Shown in pieces: positions 4,122 through 37,110 of a DNA stretch of 64,000 nucleotides. How positions within the stretch are numbered: position 1 is the stretch's first letter; each line of letters opens with the position of its first letter. Under the pieces are notes generated by a model. That model was given only the letters and a program-made list of their open reading frames with translations, did no database searches and was not told the DNA's origin. This DNA is from Patescibacteria group bacterium (lineage in GTDB: Bacteria > Patescibacteriota > Dojkabacteria > J137): NCBI GenBank assembly GCA_963169855.1, contig CAUJCN010000002.1, forward strand, positions 197,508 to 261,507. The letters are read 5' to 3'. The position numbers and the translations under genes were made by a program.

Positions 4122-4934
4122 TCATTTCAATATATTGCTATTTAATGATATTAGAGGAGCGAATGTTATATAACCTTCTGGTCGAGTTTTATCTGCCCCT
4201 AATAACTCTGAATAAATCTCCCTCATAGAATTGTTCAATTTAGAAGCATCCACAGTTATCTCTGGCTGAAGTGCTTCTGTATGAGCATAGTGAATATTTT
4301 TGGTTCCTAATCTCTGTACAACATCGTTTTTGGAGTAATAAAAGGCTTCGGTAAGATAAATTGCCAAACTGTTTGTTAAATTCACAGAAATTGGGATTCC
4401 TGCATATGCTGTAATATAACCATAGGTTGCCAGGACTCTACTTCTCGCAATCACAGCACCGGGGGTTTTTGTTTGACCAACAATCAATGCTGGATTAATG
4501 TATTCAATTCCAGCTTTGTACAGAGCACCAGCAACTCCTTTACCCTGGAAGTCTGGATGGACAACTATACCTACATCACATGCAAGAACTTTATAACTAA
4601 ATAATTTTTTTGAATCTAGTTCTGATGAGGTGTTTGATTTAATAAATTCTATTAGTCTACCTCCACGTTTATCCTCGATATCGTTCTTCCAAAGAATAAA
4701 ATACAAACTTCCCACCACTCTACCTTCTACTTCAGCTAGAAAAATTACAGTACGGTTTTCTCCATGATCAAATTCTTCTTCTACAACTTGTTCTTTTGTT
4801 TTGTCTCCAACAGGCATCCCATAGCCATCAATTATATGATCAGCAATGCTAGGATTCCTTTTGCCTGCTTCTACGATTTCACTTGGTGTAAAGATTTTTA
4901 TTTTGACTTCAGGAAAAGATTCAATGTGCTCCAT
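4122..4934 (-). CDS. GNAT family N-acetyltransferase with C-terminal extension
   Basis: GNAT motif A region VHPDFQGKGVAGALYKAG preceded by TVIFLAEVEGRVVGSLYFIL. Confidence 0.6.
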   Translation of the reverse strand: MEHIESFPEVKIKIFTPSEIVEAGKRNPSIADHIIDGYGMPVGDKTKEQVVEEEFDHGENRTVIFLAEVEGRVVGSLYFILWKNDIEDKRGGRLIEFIKSNTSSELDSKKLFSYKVLACDVGIVVHPDFQGKGVAGALYKAGIEYINPALIVGQTKTPGAVIARSRVLATYGYITAYAGIPISVNLTNSLAIYLTEAFYYSKNDVVQRLGTKNIHYAHTEALQPEITVDASKLNNSMREIYSELLGADKTRPEGYITFAPLISLNSNILK

Positions 4935-5257
4935 TAGTTATAAAACATAATATCTAAAACATCGATGGTTGGAGTTTCGTAAGGATGAATTTCTTTTATT
5001 GCTTTGACGACTTCAACTAATCTATCTTTGGGACAAATCATTTCTACTTTATCCTCTGGTTCTCTAGACATTTTATTCTGACTTCCAATAAAGGGAGCTG
5101 CATTTTCACTGGGGAGGTAATTACCAAAACCTTTTGTAATAAATGCACAGTGAGTATAGTTGCCTACAACACCTGCCCCTGCGTGAGACATTGCCTCTAT
5201 TAACTCGTCGGTATAGGCTTCTGGAATTGTCACAAAAATTTTATAGACTTCTTGCAT
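4934..5257 (-). CDS. CutA/PII-like small protein
   Basis: 107 aa, C-terminal HPYETP motif reminiscent of the HPYE(V/T)P motif of CutA1/Nif3; coupled by 1-nt overlap to downstream GNAT gene. Confidence 0.4.
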   Translation of the reverse strand: MQEVYKIFVTIPEAYTDELIEAMSHAGAGVVGNYTHCAFITKGFGNYLPSENAAPFIGSQNKMSREPEDKVEMICPKDRLVEVVKAIKEIHPYETPTIDVLDIMFYN

Positions 5258-5266
5258 ACAATTATT

Positions 5267-6544
5267 TTAACTATAAGGGCCGTATTGAGCAATGACAACT
5301 AGAAACTTAATACTCATGATTACAAACGCTACATAAGGAATAAACCTGAACTTATCAGAAATAGTTAAATATTTACTTAACAATAGAATAACAATAAACT
5401 GAACGACTAATACAATATTGTAGAGTAAACGGTCCCAATAGTTCCCCAAGCCAAAAAAGAAAAGAATAAACAGTCCCAGAAGTAGAAAGTATGGTCTAAA
5501 TTCAGCGACAATCTCCTTCTTCTGACTTTTCTTTAAAACAAGTAATCCAATGTACAGGACAATCATCGTTAATAACGAAATCCACATTTCAGTAGTTTGA
5601 GATAGAATGAATGAGCGAATGTGATTAACAATATTTTGAATCCCTGCACCAAATCCATTCTCAAATCCATCCAGCACCCAAACAAATTGTCGGTAAGATT
5701 CCGCTGCATGATTAAAGTATGTGCCTGTTTTCCACTTTACTACCATCGGCCAAATAATAGTTGGTAAAGCTGTAAGAGTAATTATTATACCTAGTGGTAA
5801 ATGTTTCAAAGGATTTAGTTTTCTCAAGTTAATATTTTTAAGTAAATATTGAAGTGCTAAAGCACCTGAAATCAAAACTACACTTGGGTAAAGTGTGGCC
5901 CCTAGACCAACTGAAGCAGCGATCAGATACTTTACTGAATTTTTTATTCCGTACTTATATTCATAGTAAATGATGGAAACAGAAGCAATTGGTATTAGTG
6001 CATTAAAAATTTGCTGATGAGGAGTAAACACAAATGCTTTTACAACTTCATTTGAAGCAAGCGCTATAACTCCAGTTAGTATTAAAAACAGACTGAATGA
6101 TTCTTTCTTGGCAATTTTCAAGAATAAGAAAATACTTGTAAACAATAAAGAGAAATTGAAAAGAATGAATCCCGCAAGAAATCTTGCGTCAATAAATAAT
6201 CCAGTTTCGGCTGGTGGAAATCCTGTAACTTTTGATAATGCTATAAAGGGTAACGAGTATACAATTCCAGTTGGAATCACTCCAGGTCTACTCTGCAATA
6301 ATTGACTTTCGTCAAAAACCGTTTTTGGATACTTCGCTAAATTAATTAACGCACTTGAATCGCAATTTAGAACAAACCCTGCAGAATCATTAAGTTCAAT
6401 GTACACTCCACAAACTTGATCTATTCCTTCTCTTGGAGCTGGTGAGAATAAAAATGCAAATGGCAGTAAACAAAAGATTGCTGATGTGATTAAAAACCTG
6501 GAGTTGCTTCGAATTAACATGGAGGATTTTTTAAGAAGATTCAT
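5267..6544 (-). CDS. polytopic integral membrane protein (possible GT-C type glycosyltransferase)
   Basis: 425 aa, at least ten hydrophobic helices; family assignment not supported by a specific motif. Confidence 0.4.
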   Translation of the reverse strand: MNLLKKSSMLIRSNSRFLITSAIFCLLPFAFLFSPAPREGIDQVCGVYIELNDSAGFVLNCDSSALINLAKYPKTVFDESQLLQSRPGVIPTGIVYSLPFIALSKVTGFPPAETGLFIDARFLAGFILFNFSLLFTSIFLFLKIAKKESFSLFLILTGVIALASNEVVKAFVFTPHQQIFNALIPIASVSIIYYEYKYGIKNSVKYLIAASVGLGATLYPSVVLISGALALQYLLKNINLRKLNPLKHLPLGIIITLTALPTIIWPMVVKWKTGTYFNHAAESYRQFVWVLDGFENGFGAGIQNIVNHIRSFILSQTTEMWISLLTMIVLYIGLLVLKKSQKKEIVAEFRPYFLLLGLFILFFFGLGNYWDRLLYNIVLVVQFIVILLLSKYLTISDKFRFIPYVAFVIMSIKFLVVIAQYGPYS

Positions 6545-6625
6545 TCTAGATTAGTAATTTATTTTATCTTAACATTAAATTGATAAATTTAAATCTGCTA
6601 CATTACTGAGGTATAAATTCTGATT

Positions 6626-7294
6626 TTACAATATTCTTTGATCATAAGTTTCTTGATCGACTAAATATACTCCCGTACAGGTAATTAAGTTTAGCTGACT
6701 TTGAACTCCTGAATTTTGAGAGAATAGAAATTTCCCAGCATCTTCTGTATTAACTGTGATCACTTCTAACACTTTGAATTTCTTCGAAGTTCCGTCCCCT
6801 ATCTCAATAGAAAATTCGTCATTTGGATTCAAAGAACCGAGATTTTTGAAAATCCCTCCTAAATTTGGACCATCTACATGACCATCAATAATACTCAATC
6901 CTGTATCTCCAGGTCTGACGCTGTCTACAAACCATCCAGCAAAGTGAATATTTGGAGGAACCGCGATCTCTACATTCTGATCTACACCTACTTTTAAAAC
7001 GTATCCTTCTGTGGAAATAGTTGGAAGATTAATATATTTAGGATCGGATTCTTTCCCATACCAGATATAATTTTCATCTGGTGGAACTTCATCAGGAATA
7101 TCTGTGGAATGAGTTATTACAACATCATTAGGATCAACCACCTCTGGTTCAGATTGTGGAGGCTGCTTCTGAAAGATCAGTGAAGTGTGTTCGCTAGTTT
7201 CGATAACTACATAAGGATGAGCAACAGTTTCTTGATCTAGTTTAAGCCAGTAAAGCTCTCCTTGATTGATGGCCATAATTAGTAAGTACTCCAT
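6626..7294 (-). CDS. sortase family transpeptidase
   Basis: Catalytic motifs IIDGHVDGPNLGGIFKNL (His) and LNLITCTG (TLxTC Cys) characteristic of sortases. Confidence 0.7.
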   Translation of the reverse strand: MEYLLIMAINQGELYWLKLDQETVAHPYVVIETSEHTSLIFQKQPPQSEPEVVDPNDVVITHSTDIPDEVPPDENYIWYGKESDPKYINLPTISTEGYVLKVGVDQNVEIAVPPNIHFAGWFVDSVRPGDTGLSIIDGHVDGPNLGGIFKNLGSLNPNDEFSIEIGDGTSKKFKVLEVITVNTEDAGKFLFSQNSGVQSQLNLITCTGVYLVDQETYDQRIL

Positions 7295-8025
7295 CCTCCA
7301 TCAGCTACGAGAATCGCTCCATTTATAAAACTTGCCTCGTCGGAAGCTAAGAAAAGAGCTGCTTGTGCAACCTCCATAGGATCACCAATTTTTTGATTAC
7401 CTTGATTTGAAAGCATTGATTTAATTAACTTACCCGCAGTAGAAAGATTAATACTGCCCGACATTATATTGGTATTCATTGCCCCTGGAGCTACAGCATT
7501 ACATCTAATACCAGATTTAGCATAAAAGTAAGCAGTATTTTTTGTAAGACCAACCACACCATGTTTACTTGCAGTGTATGCTGCTCCTGCTCTCCCACCT
7601 TCTAATCCTCCAATTGATGCTATATTCACAATAACCCCAGCCTTCTTTTTTTGAAAGATTTTGATTGCTTCTCTCATCATATAAAAAGTTCCTTTTAGAT
7701 TTATATTAATCACTCTATCGAATATCTCATCTGATACATCACCAACGGGATCTAGTTTATCCATAACTCCTGCATTGTTTATTAGAATATCAATCTCAGA
7801 ATTTTCAAAAACTTTCTTCACATCATCTTTGTTTGAAATATCTGCAGTAACAGAAGTTACGGTTGATCCCTGCGGAAGCTCAGACATAAATTGAGCTAAT
7901 GTTTGTTGGTTATAATCTATTGCGATTACATTAGCTCCCTGCTTCGCGAATAGGAGCGCGATCTCTTTACCTAAACCTGAGGCTGCTCCTGTAACTATAG
8001 CCGTTTTATTTCGAAGTGATAACAT
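7279..8025 (-). CDS. SDR family oxidoreductase (FabG-like)
   Basis: TGAASGLGKEIA cofactor-binding motif, NNAG, catalytic YTASKHGVVGLTK. Confidence 0.85.
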   Translation of the reverse strand: MLSLRNKTAIVTGAASGLGKEIALLFAKQGANVIAIDYNQQTLAQFMSELPQGSTVTSVTADISNKDDVKKVFENSEIDILINNAGVMDKLDPVGDVSDEIFDRVININLKGTFYMMREAIKIFQKKKAGVIVNIASIGGLEGGRAGAAYTASKHGVVGLTKNTAYFYAKSGIRCNAVAPGAMNTNIMSGSINLSTAGKLIKSMLSNQGNQKIGDPMEVAQAALFLASDEASFINGAILVADGGWSTY

Positions 8026-8047
8026 AACTGGAGTGATAAGAAATAAA

Positions 8048-8488
8048 TTAACTAACAGCTTTCTTTACTAATTCAATAATTCTTTTTTCCTCGACTGGGG
8101 TTAGCTTTAACAGTACAAACGATGTTGGCCACATGTTTCCATCATCTAAATTCGCTGAATCATTAAACCCTAATGTTGAATATCTTGCTTCGAATTTGCT
8201 TCCTGCTTGGAAAAAACAAACTACTTTTCCATCAGCATTTGCGTATGCTGGCATACTGTACCAAGTTTTTGGGAATAACTGAGGAGCTGTTTCTGTAACA
8301 AGTTTATGAATTCTTTTTGCCATAGATTTATCCGGTTCTTTCATAAGTGCAATCACAGCATCAATGGCTTTTTCGCCTTCTGCTCTATTCTTATTCATCT
8401 TTGCTTCTGCTCGTAACTCTTTTGCTCTTTCTCTCATTGCTTGTTTTTCGAAATCGGAAAATACTGGTTCTGCAGGTTTTGTTGCCAT
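8048..8488 (-). CDS. hypothetical protein
   Basis: 146-aa ORF with N-terminal Lys/Glu/Ala-rich helix; no recognised motif. Confidence 0.4.
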
Positions 8489-33671: not shown

Positions 33672-34412
33672 TTACTCTTGGAGCAAATTTGAAAGAGTCT
33701 TGTCTCTAGAATTTAGAAAATGTTTTGTAAGCTGATAATGTTCTGTATCTTCGTAAGCTACTTGTTGAATCGACTTTTCATCAATATGATAAATGTCCGC
33801 AGAGGGATAACCTAACAATATTGGCGAATGTGTCGCAATAATAAATTGGGAATTCTTCTTTATTAATTCGTCGATCAGAACTAACAATTTGAGCTGATTC
33901 TTCGGTGATAAAGCTGATTCTGGCTCATCTAGTATATATAGACCATTTCCCTTAAATCGATTCTCAATTAATGATAGGAAAGATTCTCCCCGTGATTGAT
34001 TATGCAATGACTTACCACCGTAAATAGAACTATCTGAATAACCTAAATTATCAACTTCTGTAGATACATTGTAAAAAGTCTCTGCTCGAAAGAAGAACCC
34101 ATCTTTAGGCAATGTTAACCCTTTCTTTAATTTAAGATATTCGTGCAGATCGGAATGAGTTTCCTTTGTACTAAATTGAAAGTTCCTTGAACCTCCTTCA
34201 GCATTAAATCCTAATGATATTGCTATCGCTTCTAAGAGTGTTGATTTACCTGAACCGTTTTCTCCTACAAAGAAAGTAACCTTAGGATTAAAAATAATAT
34301 TTGATAAATTCTTGACTACTGGTAGATTAAATGGATAATCTTTATGAGCAATGTCTTTTTGAATTGAAACCTCAAGAAGGAAATGTGTAGAGTCAATTGT
34401 TTTCATTATCAT
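33672..34412 (-). CDS. ABC-type/AAA_21-like stand-alone ATPase (COG3910-like)
   Basis: Walker A FFVGENGSGKSTLLEAIA, Q/signature-like GESFL, Walker B LYILDEPESALSP, H-loop ATHSPILL. Confidence 0.6.
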   Translation of the reverse strand: MIMKTIDSTHFLLEVSIQKDIAHKDYPFNLPVVKNLSNIIFNPKVTFFVGENGSGKSTLLEAIAISLGFNAEGGSRNFQFSTKETHSDLHEYLKLKKGLTLPKDGFFFRAETFYNVSTEVDNLGYSDSSIYGGKSLHNQSRGESFLSLIENRFKGNGLYILDEPESALSPKNQLKLLVLIDELIKKNSQFIIATHSPILLGYPSADIYHIDEKSIQQVAYEDTEHYQLTKHFLNSRDKTLSNLLQE

Positions 34413-34992
34413 CTATTTTATCACAGAGAAAATCTGCAAAGGACTTTAATTCTTTCTGAGATTCCATTAACCAACTTCTATACCTAGCCTTTGAGAGTAA
34501 TTCCGTAAAGATCTCATCTTCAATAACAAGCCTATAACCTCCAAACCCATCTCCAATAGGGTTAATTGTGAGCCTGACATGATTATTTTTATGAATCTTG
34601 TAAAATTCATAAATAAACCTACTTAGTCTGTATGCTTCATCTTTATTGAATTGTTTAAACTTTTCAACAAAAGTTTCGTATTTAGATTGATAATTTCGAT
34701 TGTTAGGATATTTCTGTATTGAGTTTAAAGCATTAAGAAAAGCTGAGCTACTCTCCAGTTTTTCCGATTCTTTTGAGGATATTTGAACGTATGGTGTCTG
34801 ACCAGTCAAATGCCCACTGCATGAACTAGTTGTTTCAAATCCTAAGGATCTTAAGATAGCAACTATATAACGTATACCTTTATCTATTGGAAGGTTTAGA
34901 CCATCAATAATGTTCAAAACCTCGTCATAGTTTCTTTGTAGTTTTTTTGATGTGAATTTCATATTATTTGTAGGATCGGTAGTGGCGTTCAA
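34393..34992 (-). CDS. hypothetical protein (partner of ATPase)
   Basis: 199-aa ORF overlapping the ATPase start by 20 nt; no recognised motif. Confidence 0.4.
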   Translation of the reverse strand: MNATTDPTNNMKFTSKKLQRNYDEVLNIIDGLNLPIDKGIRYIVAILRSLGFETTSSCSGHLTGQTPYVQISSKESEKLESSSAFLNALNSIQKYPNNRNYQSKYETFVEKFKQFNKDEAYRLSRFIYEFYKIHKNNHVRLTINPIGDGFGGYRLVIEDEIFTELLSKARYRSWLMESQKELKSFADFLCDKIDDNENN

Positions 34993-34995
34993 GTA

Positions 34996-35229
34996 TTACT
35001 TGACCGGGGGATTCACCCCGCTGCCGCGACAAACGCGGCAGACGCCTTTGCCCGGAACTGCACAGGAAGGACACTGATGTTCTTGTCCACCGGGAGCCTT
35101 TTTACGGATCCTCCCAGTTCCTGAGCAAACGTTGCACTTGCCATTGCCATTACATCCGGTACACTTAGCCACGCTAAATCCTTTCATGTAAATGCCAGAT
35201 GGCATATCATCTCTATATACTAAGTACAA
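34996..35229 (-). CDS. small DnaJ-CR-type zinc-finger protein
   Basis: 77 aa with three CxxCxGxG repeats (CTGCNGNG, CNVCSGTG, CRVCRGSG) plus CPSC; GC-rich due to Cys/Gly/Arg/Pro codons. Confidence 0.5.
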   Translation of the reverse strand: MYLVYRDDMPSGIYMKGFSVAKCTGCNGNGKCNVCSGTGRIRKKAPGGQEHQCPSCAVPGKGVCRVCRGSGVNPPVK

Positions 35230-35296
35230 GTTGATGACAATACGCTCATAACGTTCTTAAAATATAGACTATTCCTTATCATGTTAAAATAGTTCA

Positions 35297-36310
35297 ATGC
35301 AGATTCAATCTAACTGGAAATTAAGAGCAATTCTCATAGGTTTCATCGCTCTATTCCTTGCGTACAGATTATTCGATATAGAAAGTTTCTTAACTTACGA
35401 TCTGAATGGAATTCAAATTGGCTATAGGATCAATGATTTAGTAACAACTTTCAGAAGTATTTTGATTCAGTCTTTTCCATTTTTGGTTATCGGATCTTTA
35501 GTTTCAGCTGTAGTTGCAGTGTTTATAAAAGAAGAATGGCTTTTGAAGATTATTCCTAAAAATAGATTTTTATCTCACCTCGTTGTTTCTCTTCTGGGAT
35601 TTCTGATGCCTGTTTGTGAATGCGGAAATGTCCCTGTAGCAAGGCGATTCATGCTTCAAGGTTTTAAAGTTTCTCACGCTGTTACGTTCTTAATGTCGGC
35701 TCCTATTTTGAACCCGATAACTTTGTGGAGTACCTATGAAGCTTTCCGAGGTGTTTATCAAAATGATTTAATGGTCTGGTCAAGAATTATTGCAGGATTA
35801 GTTATCGCTAATGGACTCGGATTGATTATTAGCTACAAAAGAAATCAGTTCTCCCTTTTAACAGAGAAGTTCTACAAGGAAGTTTGCGAACATCCTCAAG
35901 AACCTAAAAAAGAAAAAATTGATAATTTTACACAGACTTTTGCAAAAGAATTTACGACAGTTGCGACTGCATTGATTATTGGTGCATTCTTAGCAACATT
36001 GTTCCAACTTCTACCAAGAGAATTTATTCTTGCAGTTGGACAAAGCCCGTTGATAGCAATTCTAGCAATGATTTTATACTCTTTCATAATCTCTGTTTGC
36101 TCTAATGTAGATTCATTCTTAGTAATCCGATATACATCAACATTTAGTCCTGGCGCAATCGCATCTTACTTAACGTTTGGTCCACTGATTGATATAAAAA
36201 TGCTTACAATGCTGAGATCTTCGTTCAAAGTCAAAACATTGTTATTCTTTACAGTTTTCATTTTATTAACATCGATAATTACTGGTTTGTTAGTTAATTT
36301 ACTAATATGA
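35297..36310 (+). CDS. predicted permease (COG0701/DUF318 family)
   Basis: Polytopic protein with CECGNVPVARR motif typical of COG0701 permeases. Confidence 0.6.
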   Translation: MQIQSNWKLRAILIGFIALFLAYRLFDIESFLTYDLNGIQIGYRINDLVTTFRSILIQSFPFLVIGSLVSAVVAVFIKEEWLLKIIPKNRFLSHLVVSLLGFLMPVCECGNVPVARRFMLQGFKVSHAVTFLMSAPILNPITLWSTYEAFRGVYQNDLMVWSRIIAGLVIANGLGLIISYKRNQFSLLTEKFYKEVCEHPQEPKKEKIDNFTQTFAKEFTTVATALIIGAFLATLFQLLPREFILAVGQSPLIAILAMILYSFIISVCSNVDSFLVIRYTSTFSPGAIASYLTFGPLIDIKMLTMLRSSFKVKTLLFFTVFILLTSIITGLLVNLLI

Positions 36311-37110
36311 TTTTCGGATATTTGTTTTCAATAATTTTTGGCGGATGGATTTTATTTGCACACTTTGTTCAGAATAATTTATCTATCTATACTTCCGACA
36401 GGTATTATTCTTTAATATTGATTGCAGGATTTGTTTCAATAGTTATAGGAATTGTTGGATTGGTTTTGAATCGAAGCAAATTGAATGAATACAACTCTCC
36501 AGATACATTTACACTTTTAGCAACTCTGATAGCAGGAATTCTTTTCTCACCTATTCTTTTGATATTTTCGATCTTCATTTTGGTTGTTCCTCAATTTAAG
36601 TTTAAATTAACTGCTAACTTTATATTTTTAGCAGTTATTGCAACAAGCGTTATTTTCCCAACTAAAGGGATTTCTCCTGCACTTGCCGAAGAACGTGCCG
36701 AGGAATTAAATACTGTGAATATTCAAGGAGGAAGTAGAATTTTGAACAATTTTGCGGTTTCGACAGATAAATACGGAATTGGTGATTGGCTTGCTTCTAT
36801 GGCCTACAACGGAGATCCTCAATTCTATAACGGCAAAAGTGTTAGCGTTGATGGATTTATTTTTAGAACAGCTAATCTAGCTGAAAATGAATTTTTTGTT
36901 GCCAGATACACAATCCGTTGTTGTGTCGCAGATGCAGCTCCGGTTGGGTTAAAAGTAAAGTTTGATCTTGACGATAATTTCAAAATAGGTGATTGGGTTA
37001 ACATAAAAGGTATTTTTGAAGTAGATAGCTCTAAAGGTTATGAAGAAAACATAATTATTCCAACGGAAGTTAACTCTATTCCTGTTCCAGAAAAACAATA
37101 TATTTTCTAA
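36307..37110 (+). CDS. TIGR03943-like membrane protein, partner of COG0701 permease
   Basis: N-terminal TM helices plus C-terminal soluble domain; start overlaps the permease stop, the usual pairing for this family. Confidence 0.45.
   Translation: MIFGYLFSIIFGGWILFAHFVQNNLSIYTSDRYYSLILIAGFVSIVIGIVGLVLNRSKLNEYNSPDTFTLLATLIAGILFSPILLIFSIFILVVPQFKFKLTANFIFLAVIATSVIFPTKGISPALAEERAEELNTVNIQGGSRILNNFAVSTDKYGIGDWLASMAYNGDPQFYNGKSVSVDGFIFRTANLAENEFFVARYTIRCCVADAAPVGLKVKFDLDDNFKIGDWVNIKGIFEVDSSKGYEENIIIPTEVNSIPVPEKQYIF

Follow-up and report, generated by a model that had tools for sequence, protein, structure and literature searches.

What does a tightly packed group of three genes do in a member of the Patescibacteria, and does it belong to any system already described? 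The stretch analysed here (the window, 64,000 nucleotides of contig CAUJCN010000002.1 from a Patescibacteria group bacterium) carries on its minus strand a gene for a zinc-finger miniprotein (ZnF), then a gene for a protein of no recognised family (the middle protein, Mid), and then a gene for a small ATP-binding cassette (ABC) ATPase. A first-pass annotation, made from the letters of the DNA, had read these as a tightly coupled operon and had suspected a defence module in which a stand-alone ATPase is paired with an effector. The ORF (open reading frame) map contains the three minus-strand ORFs where that annotation had placed them, and the tightly coupled operon is genuine and recurs in other lineages. 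What appears to be new, as far as sequence comparison tells, is a conserved pair of ZnF and Mid, a centre in Mid that resembles that of TYW3, and a lineage-specific coupling of this pair to an orphan ABC ATPase. The explanation that we favour, tentatively and at somewhat less than an even chance, is an accessory operon in which the pair, with its TYW3-like centre, is coupled to the ATPase and serves in conflict or stress.

Loci were fetched through close homologues of Mid and of the ATPase (they are designated by L and a number) and were then searched with tblastn. The same three genes in the same order are found in L085/86/90/91 (ZnF 66%, Mid 42% and ATPase 69% identity), in L088/89 (ZnF 55%, Mid 38%, ATPase 60%) and in L113/114 (ZnF 49%, Mid 35%, ATPase 67%), and L084 carries Mid (47%) and the ATPase (68%) up to a contig end that falls before the position of ZnF. 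The triad is therefore known from five lineages, the window included and L084 truncated, and conservation elsewhere, which the first-pass annotation had left to be checked, extends to four further lineages. Mid and the ATPase overlap by 14 nt in L084 and L113 and by 4 nt in L105; in L085 and L088 a gap of 4-6 nt separates them. The flanking genes differ from one triad lineage to the next (glycolysis and glycosyltransferase genes; ASCH and APH; an rRNA methylase and UDG; FUR and ZIP), and in the window they encode a permease, an HD protein, an ABC transporter and MurG.

The operon is not a universal syntenic core operon. L104 shares 11 collinear flanking genes with the window (59-88% identity) and has retained the ATPase (73.6%) without ZnF or Mid. 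An alignment of its DNA revealed no remnant of Mid, whereas translation of the right frame did: the frame that ends over the ATPase start reads LACDKIVDDKIN up to its stop codon, to be compared with the C-terminus of Mid, FLCDKIDDNENN. This in-frame stub indicates that ZnF and Mid were deleted there. L105 retains residues 86-184 of Mid only, fused onto the start of the ATPase, and L106-108 and L115 have the ATPase alone. In a neighbour-joining tree the triad-bearing ATPases are interleaved with the reduced versions in one clade, which implies that the triad is ancestral to the clade and has been lost repeatedly. By all appearances the operon is an accessory one of a clade of bacteria with small, AT-rich genomes, vertically inherited, dispensable and frequently lost; no known housekeeping pair that it could represent was found. 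As a separate observation, L104 has, in place of ZnF and most of Mid, 231 nt of intergenic DNA with a GC content of 45%, its genome being AT-rich; the structure predicted for this segment is strong (-76.7 kcal/mol, calculated with no shuffle control), and the other fetched loci have no copy of it.

More distant members of the Mid family (26-35% identity, in genomes of 26-63% GC) have no adjoining ATPase, and many of them have an ORF of the DnaJ cysteine-rich (CR) type next door. The CR-type ORF is divergent to Mid in L094/97, L095 and L096 and convergent in L092 and L110; over all loci the two genes are co-directional in four lineages and divergent or convergent in five. Of 17 independent loci, 9 have such an ORF within 140 nt of Mid, in any orientation, against an expectation of 0.0034 per locus (binomial P = 1.3e-18); contig ends cut several of the remainder. 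By a fixed criterion there is a single CR-like ORF in 731 kb of control loci and a single one in the 64-kb window, which is ZnF itself; with this rarity and the recurrence of the triad in other lineages, the arrangement is far beyond chance. The ZnF of L110 ends in KGKCRVCRGSGVRPPTL and matches the KGVCRVCRGSGVNPPVK of the window, the common tail being CRVCRGSGV.PP. No recurrent family other than ZnF was found among the neighbours of distant Mid homologues. ZnF and Mid, a miniprotein of 50-65 aa and a protein of ~180 aa, thus appear to be the older, widely scattered unit, and the conserved functional pair would be ZnF with Mid, not Mid with the ATPase.

This distribution also bears on whether the ATPase has any part in the function. 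ZnF and Mid might be a self-contained pair of a toxin/antidote-like or selfish kind that is lodged upstream of a resident, uninvolved ATPase: the pair and the ATPase are each widely found without the other, a small protein stands beside a protein of ~180 aa of unknown fold in mobile and defence islands, and the pair is easily lost. We hold this to be improbable, since the overlapping or near-abutting junction of Mid and the ATPase has been kept in five lineages (ATPase 60-70%, Mid 35-47% identity), the divergences of the two proteins are parallel, and divergent and convergent orientations of ZnF are atypical of toxin-antitoxin pairs.

ZnF contains four CxxC motifs, of which CTGCNGNG, CNVCSGTG and CRVCRGSG are strict CxxCxGxG repeats and CPSCAVPG is a variant (CxxCxxxG); the first-pass annotation had counted the three strict ones and passed over the fourth. 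This is the full eight-cysteine, two-zinc pattern of the DnaJ CR type, with two predicted zinc sites, followed by a C-terminal tail that reads GSGVNPPVK. All eight cysteines are kept in seven of eight aligned homologues, the exception being the L092 protein with two CxxC motifs, and the homologues in triads are 49-66% identical. Among four triad lineages the identity is 0.62-0.75 at the first two codon positions and 0.26-0.45 at the third, an excess that indicates a protein-coding gene under purifying selection. ZnF has weak Pfam matches to DnaJ_CXXCXGXG, BSD2_CRD and Anti-TRAP, and the gathering score of PF00684 (32.7 bits) is missed both by the window protein (14.3 bits) and by the L096 homologue (23.2 bits). 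With the DnaJ CR domain, anti-TRAP and BSD2 it has in common the four CxxC(xGxG) repeats, the eight cysteines or two zinc centres and the small size. It differs from DnaJ in having neither J-domain nor substrate-binding domains as well as in its scores below the cut-offs, and from all three in its own conserved CRVCxGSG-x-PP tail and in its genomic tie to the Mid family, which is unlike any known link of these proteins. The first-pass annotation had called a DnaJ-type miniprotein unusual as the first gene, and we agree that it is unusual; a literature search for CR-type fingers in defence islands returned nothing relevant. L110 carries two CR-type proteins, one of them with nine CxxC motifs in 156 aa.

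A search with ZnF of a database of 5.8 billion proteins returned only ZnF itself. The CR-type genes are uncalled in several public assemblies, and for this reason ZnF looked like an orphan; they were revealed by tblastn on the loci fetched through Mid and ATPase homologues. Six such uncalled genes are listed in the table, and for those of L085, L088 and L113 the public records list no gene at the position of ZnF.

Mid is an alpha/beta protein of 189 aa for which AlphaFold2 gives a confident model (pLDDT, the predicted local distance difference test, 96; pTM, the predicted template modelling score, 0.90). The model has an N-terminal helix, a helix-strand-strand unit, a long helical hairpin, two more strands and a long C-terminal helix. 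In agreement with the first-pass annotation, which had seen no motif in it, Mid belongs to no family of Pfam, NCBIfam, PADLOC or PHROG. A Foldseek search of the model found nothing significant in the PDB and, in BFVD, only borderline matches to uncharacterised phage proteins. A word-indexed protein search yielded two proteins only, against at least 419 relatives (cluster representatives, typically 170-220 aa) at E < 1e-3 in an exhaustive HMMER search. Among 126 sequences C48, G50 and H51 are invariant, and D20, D27, T44, S47, P57, Y121 and E171 are conserved in at least 90%; 145 of 149 members have CxGH, and none has CxGR. The fusion partners carried by long family members gave no information. 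In a viral contig of IMG/VR (L109, 111,877 bp) we noted a protein of 245 aa with a Mid-like C-terminal half and the variant motif ASCSGVGH.

What defines the TYW3/Taw3 class is the motif (S/T)xSSCxGR together with an Asp in the N-terminal part and a His further on; in SsTaw3 these are D25, T44, S46, S47, C48, G50, R51 and H73, and the Asp, Cys and Arg are essential in yeast TYW3 (PMC5311493). D27, T44, S46, S47, C48, G50 and H51 of Mid match D25, T44, S46, S47, C48, G50 and R51 of SsTaw3 in residues and spacing, with Arg replaced by His, and both D27 and D20 (each conserved in at least 90%) lie ~20 residues before the motif, as D25 does in SsTaw3. TYW3 (PF02676) is also the sole recurrent Pfam signal of the Mid family, and 11 of 126 members show it, as do 7 of the 10 closest; in every case residues 19-56 of the protein align with positions 15-53 of the 211 in the model. 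Mid and TYW3/Taw3 (PF02676, 1TLJ) thus have in common an N-terminal helix with its Asp and then a strand with T-x-S-S-C-x-G, in equal numbering. They appear to differ in fold, the Mid model having one four-stranded sheet with a long helical hairpin and TYW3/Taw3 an N-terminal extension with RAGNYA and SHS2. Besides H51 the Mid alignments show no conserved His, and no counterpart of His73 was identified. They differ also in range, Mid being bacterial and TYW3/Taw3 being characterised in eukaryotic and archaeal wyosine-type tRNA modification (PMC5311493; PMC7761594). We would therefore describe Mid as TYW3-like at the catalytic centre, not as a member of the TYW3 family.

Such a motif invites the reading of Mid as a TYW3-like, S-adenosylmethionine-dependent base methyltransferase of tRNA or rRNA with a housekeeping or fitness role, in which ZnF would be an RNA- or protein-binding cofactor and the ATPase a translation-linked ABC protein modulated by Mid. 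The high conservation of the ATPase across phyla speaks for a target that is itself conserved in the cell; the neighbours include an rRNA adenine dimethylase and methyltransferases in L113 and GatCAB in L115; and one member of the Mid family is fused, weakly (E 3.7e-4), to a class I methyltransferase-like domain. A housekeeping role does not sit well with the loss of the module in a syntenic sister genome, its decay in another and its patchy distribution, and across loci there is no consistent neighbourhood link to translation genes. The Arg that is essential in TYW3 is replaced at position 51, and the substrates of TYW3, the wyosine-family bases, are found in eukaryotic and archaeal tRNA-Phe (PMC7761594). 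We consider this reading quite unlikely.

The ATPase was correctly recognised by the first-pass annotation as a small ABC-type protein: it matches AAA_21 (5.6e-16) and AAA_15 (5.9e-16), and the GENGSGKST, LDEPESALSP and ATHSP motifs named there are all found. It belongs to a family of ~245-aa proteins termed AAA family ATPase or predicted ATPase (the latter being the JGI label of its homologues), with at least 8000 homologues and at least 592 genome loci in Clostridia, Bacilli, Alpha-, Beta- and Gammaproteobacteria, Verrucomicrobia, Planctomycetes and Saccharibacteria. The window copy corresponds to this family in its Walker A, QSHGES signature, LDEPEAALSP, ATHSP and N-terminal YPFNLP segments and is 57-73% identical to 19 aligned members over 98-100% of its length. 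The family motifs TFFVGENGSGKST, NAEGGS.NF, QSHGESF, LYILDEPEAALSP and QFIIATHSP are all present except for one replacement, H139R: residue 139 (33990-33992) is Arg in the window and His in 19 of 19 aligned homologues (QSHGESF). A sequencing error is unlikely, since the identical Arg139 ATPase occurs on 11 contigs. The AlphaFold2 model (pLDDT 83) retrieves generic ABC nucleotide-binding domains, heads of SMC (structural maintenance of chromosomes) proteins and PtuA at template modelling (TM) scores of ~0.5 in Foldseek, with no close solved relative, and PDB sequence matches include PtuA. Elsewhere the ATPase is a lone gene, whereas the window copy is coupled to Mid and preceded by ZnF; neither Mid nor ZnF lies near the ATPase in any of 80 sampled loci. 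Two apparent conserved neighbours were rejected, since they proved to be ORFs in another frame of the ATPase gene itself, in GC-rich genomes. The ATPase is found in 56 of 72,556 plasmid records, with heterogeneous neighbours, and at 11 loci on viral contigs. A full-text literature search for COG3910, to which the first-pass annotation had likened it, returned nothing relevant, its one match being a paper on transporter annotation. Judged from its sequence, it is a minimal soluble ABC ATPase, normally stand-alone, and not a component of a described defence system.

The suspicion of defence rested on a recurring architecture, and the resemblance is real in one respect: PARIS, Septu, the retron PtuA/PtuB pair, Gabija, PrrC and RloC likewise have an ABC/SMC-type ATPase in an operon with a putative effector. 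A comparison with PADLOC models does give matches of the ATPase to mad3 (4.6e-22) and AriA (2.3e-18) and also to PtuA, GajA and AbiLi, and the PDB matches to PtuA point the same way, towards a variant of PARIS, Septu/PtuAB, Gabija or an AbiL-like system. These matches cover only the P-loop and signature/Walker B ends, and the best-scoring stretch of each match to AriA of PARIS (~55 kDa) is ATPase residues ~154-200 only. The curated NCBIfam cut-offs are missed by an order of magnitude (PtuA 55.9 against 500, MAD3 28 against 420). Compared with PARIS, Septu, Gabija, PrrC and RloC the window ATPase, at 244 aa, is half the size, has no coiled-coil, dimerisation or TOPRIM insertions and has no nuclease partner. 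Neither Mid nor ZnF has a Pfam or PADLOC match to AriB (TOPRIM/DUF4435) and none is found among the flanking genes; there is no HNH gene at the locus, as would be expected of PtuB; and GajA models are matched at the ends only, with no TOPRIM and no helicase (UvrD-like GajB) at the locus. Membership in a known ABC-ATPase anti-phage system is thus refuted by the tests of score, size and partner, and we leave it almost no probability. The template of a stand-alone ATPase with its effector fails as well, with no conserved ATPase partner in the 80 loci, without the insertion domains of AriA, PtuA and GajA, and below the cut-offs.

A further comparison is with the PADLOC candidate PDC-M01, which to our knowledge is unvalidated. 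The ATPase matches PDC-M01A (2.5e-12) in a generic way, and four ZnF-type proteins match the C-terminal stretch of PDC-M01B (~294-356 of 366), weakly (E 0.88, 0.28, 0.27 and 0.0039). The partner of PDC-M01B is an AAA_15/21-type ATPase; PDC-M01A is twice as long as the window ATPase, and Mid has no counterpart there. The triad corresponds to no known defence system, and a role in defence or conflict is plausible.

The surroundings of distant pairs are in part those of defence islands. A large serine recombinase and a SMODS nucleotidyltransferase with an S_4TM effector (a CBASS-like two-gene system) flank ZnF and Mid in L094; Mrr_cat, PIN_4 and Shedu (SduA) surround them in L110, with MT-A70 also beside the pair; and L105 is near a DNA methylase and Vsr. 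Dispensability and patchiness, these SMODS, Shedu, Mrr, PIN and Vsr contexts, and the repeated weak matches to PDC-M01B are what lead us to favour an accessory or conflict role.

A second set of contexts concerns metals. On the Skermanella sp. TT6 plasmid pTT6-1 (L112, NZ_CP067421.1 40201-40731) a Mid-family protein annotated as hypothetical lies between aztD, for a metallochaperone, and zigA; DUF1826 and a class III alcohol dehydrogenase are in the vicinity, and the whole resembles a zinc-starvation cluster. In L084 a FUR-family regulator and a ZIP transporter are encoded 2.5 kb downstream, and the window and L104 abut a pair of ArsP_1 and DUF1980 permease genes. ZnF might then be a two-zinc buffer or donor, Mid its metal-binding partner (through Cys48, His51, Asp20, Asp27 and Glu171) and the ATPase the motor of metal transfer or insertion, by analogy with SufC and SufBD or with NTPase metallochaperones. 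The eight conserved Cys of ZnF and the near-invariant residues of Mid, which are classic metal ligands (CxxH and acidic), would suit such zinc homeostasis, and AztA and SufC are among the NCBIfam ABC matches of the ATPase. These last are generic ABC similarity far under the cut-offs, however, and CR-type fingers normally use zinc structurally. The metal contexts come from three loci of ~20, most of the others being unrelated (glycolysis, glycosyltransferases, rRNA methylase, Shedu, SMODS), and the Skermanella locus has no ZnF. Zinc homeostasis is, in our judgement, unlikely, and the analogy with SufC or metallochaperones shares that standing.

In the accessory operon that we favour, the three proteins would form a complex, the association of ZnF with Mid being suggested by an adjacency that is conserved in any orientation and that of Mid with the ATPase by their conserved coupling. 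Like anti-TRAP or BSD2, ZnF may be a zinc finger that binds protein, in this case Mid, which it would control or chaperone, and ATP-driven dimerisation of the ABC heads would gate the TYW3-like pocket of Mid. The pocket would act on a nucleotide or nucleic acid, for which tRNA is the most attractive candidate. An ABC ATPase with a tRNA-directed effector is a recurring theme (PrrC, RloC, PARIS, retron Eco7), and a Mid that acts on tRNA would echo it. In this clade ZnF and Mid would have come to be placed before, and translationally coupled to, an ATPase that is a lone gene elsewhere, and the role would be an accessory one in conflict or stress rather than core housekeeping.

Several results weigh against this reading, and they concern both the mobile or defensive character of the operon and the likeness to TYW3. 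None of 50,697 phage records contains Mid, and the 72,556 plasmid records give one match only; in the window, L088 and L113 the triad stands among housekeeping genes. The ATPase family is 55-73% identical over its full length across phyla, unlike typical defence ATPases, and no conserved neighbour of it is seen in the 80 loci, which were sampled from diverse genomes; the variable orientation of ZnF speaks against a classical toxin-antitoxin operon. The match to PF02676 spans ~35 residues and does not reach the gathering score (best 22.4 bits against 27, with 14.1 bits for the Mid of the window), and the (S/T)xSSCxGR motif is broken at its essential Arg, which is His in all 145 members with a CxG motif. 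A Mid profile run against PDB sequences did not retrieve the Taw3 structures, and in Foldseek SsTaw3 (1tlj) is at rank 33 with a TM score of 0.31. A bolder form of the proposal, that Mid represents a new bacterial branch, with a Cys-x-Gly-His centre, of the 'class IX' fold of TYW3/Taw3, controlled by ZnF and, in a clade of small-genome bacteria, wired to a minimal ABC ATPase as an ATP-gated conflict or defence module that modifies or inactivates tRNA or another nucleic acid, is in our view doubtful and has a low probability.

The positions of the genes, of their motifs and of features in other loci are collected in the table. The 3-nt gap and the 20-nt overlap given by the first-pass annotation are reproduced with the starts of the longest ORFs (ZnF TTG 35229, Mid TTG 34992, ATPase ATG 34412), whereas homologues and public gene calls back later starts, with which the gap between ZnF and Mid is 33 nt and the overlap of Mid and the ATPase 14 nt; this overlap suggests translational coupling of the two. 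ZnF could also start further upstream, at 35205 (69 aa), as in the public gene call, or at TTG 35229 (77 aa). The promoter of the operon is presumably located in the intergenic region upstream of ZnF, where one weak sigma-70-like match was found on the minus strand at 35287-35259, as a consensus match only. An Rfam scan of the window found two tRNAs only.

Features of the operon in the window and of related loci. Positions without a locus number are those of the window.
Feature	Positions	Strand	Basis or remark
ZnF gene	34996-35187	minus	ATG 35187, 63 aa; homologue N-termini
Mid gene	34393-34962	minus	ATG 34962, 189 aa; homologue-backed start
ATPase gene	33672-34406	minus	ATG 34406, 244 aa; homologue-backed start
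Upstream intergenic region	35188-35296	minus	common to the operon and the divergent ArsP_1-type permease gene (start 35297, plus)
Mid/ATPase overlap, 14 nt	34393-34406	minus	same 14 nt in L084 and L113
Mid signature T44-T-S-S-C48-S-G50-H51	34810-34833	minus	conservation in 126 sequences
Mid Asp27 codon	34882-34884	minus	partner Asp of the signature motif
Walker A GENGSGKST, residues 48-56	34239-34265	minus	motif alignment
ABC signature-like QSRGES, residues 137-142	33981-33998	minus	alignment of 19 homologues
Walker B and D-loop LDEPESALSP, residues 159-168	33903-33932	minus	motif alignment
H-loop ATHSP, residues 191-195	33822-33836	minus	motif alignment
Hydrophobic ORF, 90 aa	33278-33550	minus	121 nt downstream of the ATPase
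ArsP_1-type permease and DUF1980_C protein	35297-37110		adjoin the operon divergently
Same pair in L104	L104:2962-4769		syntenic
Intergenic segment, 231 nt	L104:4770-5000		replaces ZnF and most of Mid
Uncalled CR-type gene	L085:1081-1251
Uncalled CR-type gene	L088:4747-4941
Uncalled CR-type gene	L113:2762-2941
Uncalled CR-type gene	L094:2648-2863
Uncalled CR-type gene	L096:3677-3844
Uncalled CR-type gene	L092:4470-4607
Recombinase; SMODS and S_4TM genes	L094:142-1557 and 4906-6718		flank ZnF and Mid
Mrr_cat, PIN_4, Shedu (SduA)	L110:3214-3717, 6634-7506, 7565-8445		surround ZnF and Mid
Mid-like protein, 245 aa	L109:4665-5402		IMG/VR contig

The base composition of the ZnF gene stands out from its surroundings, with a GC content of 0.47 in the 300-nt interval 34900-35199 against a background of ~0.32. 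The first-pass annotation had ascribed this spike to Cys, Gly, Arg and Pro codons; the spike is real, and amino-acid composition explains half of it only. ZnF has a GC content of 0.547, against 0.450 predicted from its amino acids and the codon usage of the window, and its GC at third codon positions (GC3) is 0.524 against 0.242 expected, a value reached in 0 of 10,000 simulations. Mid and the ATPase are host-typical. In two other AT-rich triads the GC3 of ZnF is 0.40 and 0.57, against 0.17-0.27 for the neighbours, so that in all three AT-rich triads tested (window, L085, L088) it is about twice that of the host genome; in GC-normal genomes it equals that of the neighbours. RNA folding z-scores are -4.0, -1.5 and -2.3. 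A conserved RNA element was considered as the cause and ruled out, there being no shared structure and no conservation of third positions. The GC3 excess would point to compositional selection, for example on translation rate or mRNA stability, and not to a conserved RNA element or recent transfer.

Two neighbours of the operon deserve mention for themselves. The ArsP_1-type permease and the DUF1980_C protein (with an RCCVAD motif) that adjoin it divergently in the window and in L104 form a putative two-component permease. Downstream of the ATPase, the very hydrophobic 90-aa ORF has a counterpart of 88% identity in the syntenic L104, uncalled there as a gene, and none in the other triads, which indicates that it is not part of the module.

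If confirmed, the pairing described here would be a new conserved association of a DnaJ-type zinc-finger miniprotein, mostly uncalled, with an uncharacterised family of at least 400 clusters, and in Mid a bacterial family would be re-using the motif of the TYW3/Taw3 catalytic centre. The case also illustrates how small cysteine-rich genes escape annotation, which is why the triad looked like an orphan. ZnF and Mid would be the first conserved partners of a widespread ABC ATPase family and so an experimental entry point to it, and if the reading holds true they would give the first functional handle on this very widespread orphan family.

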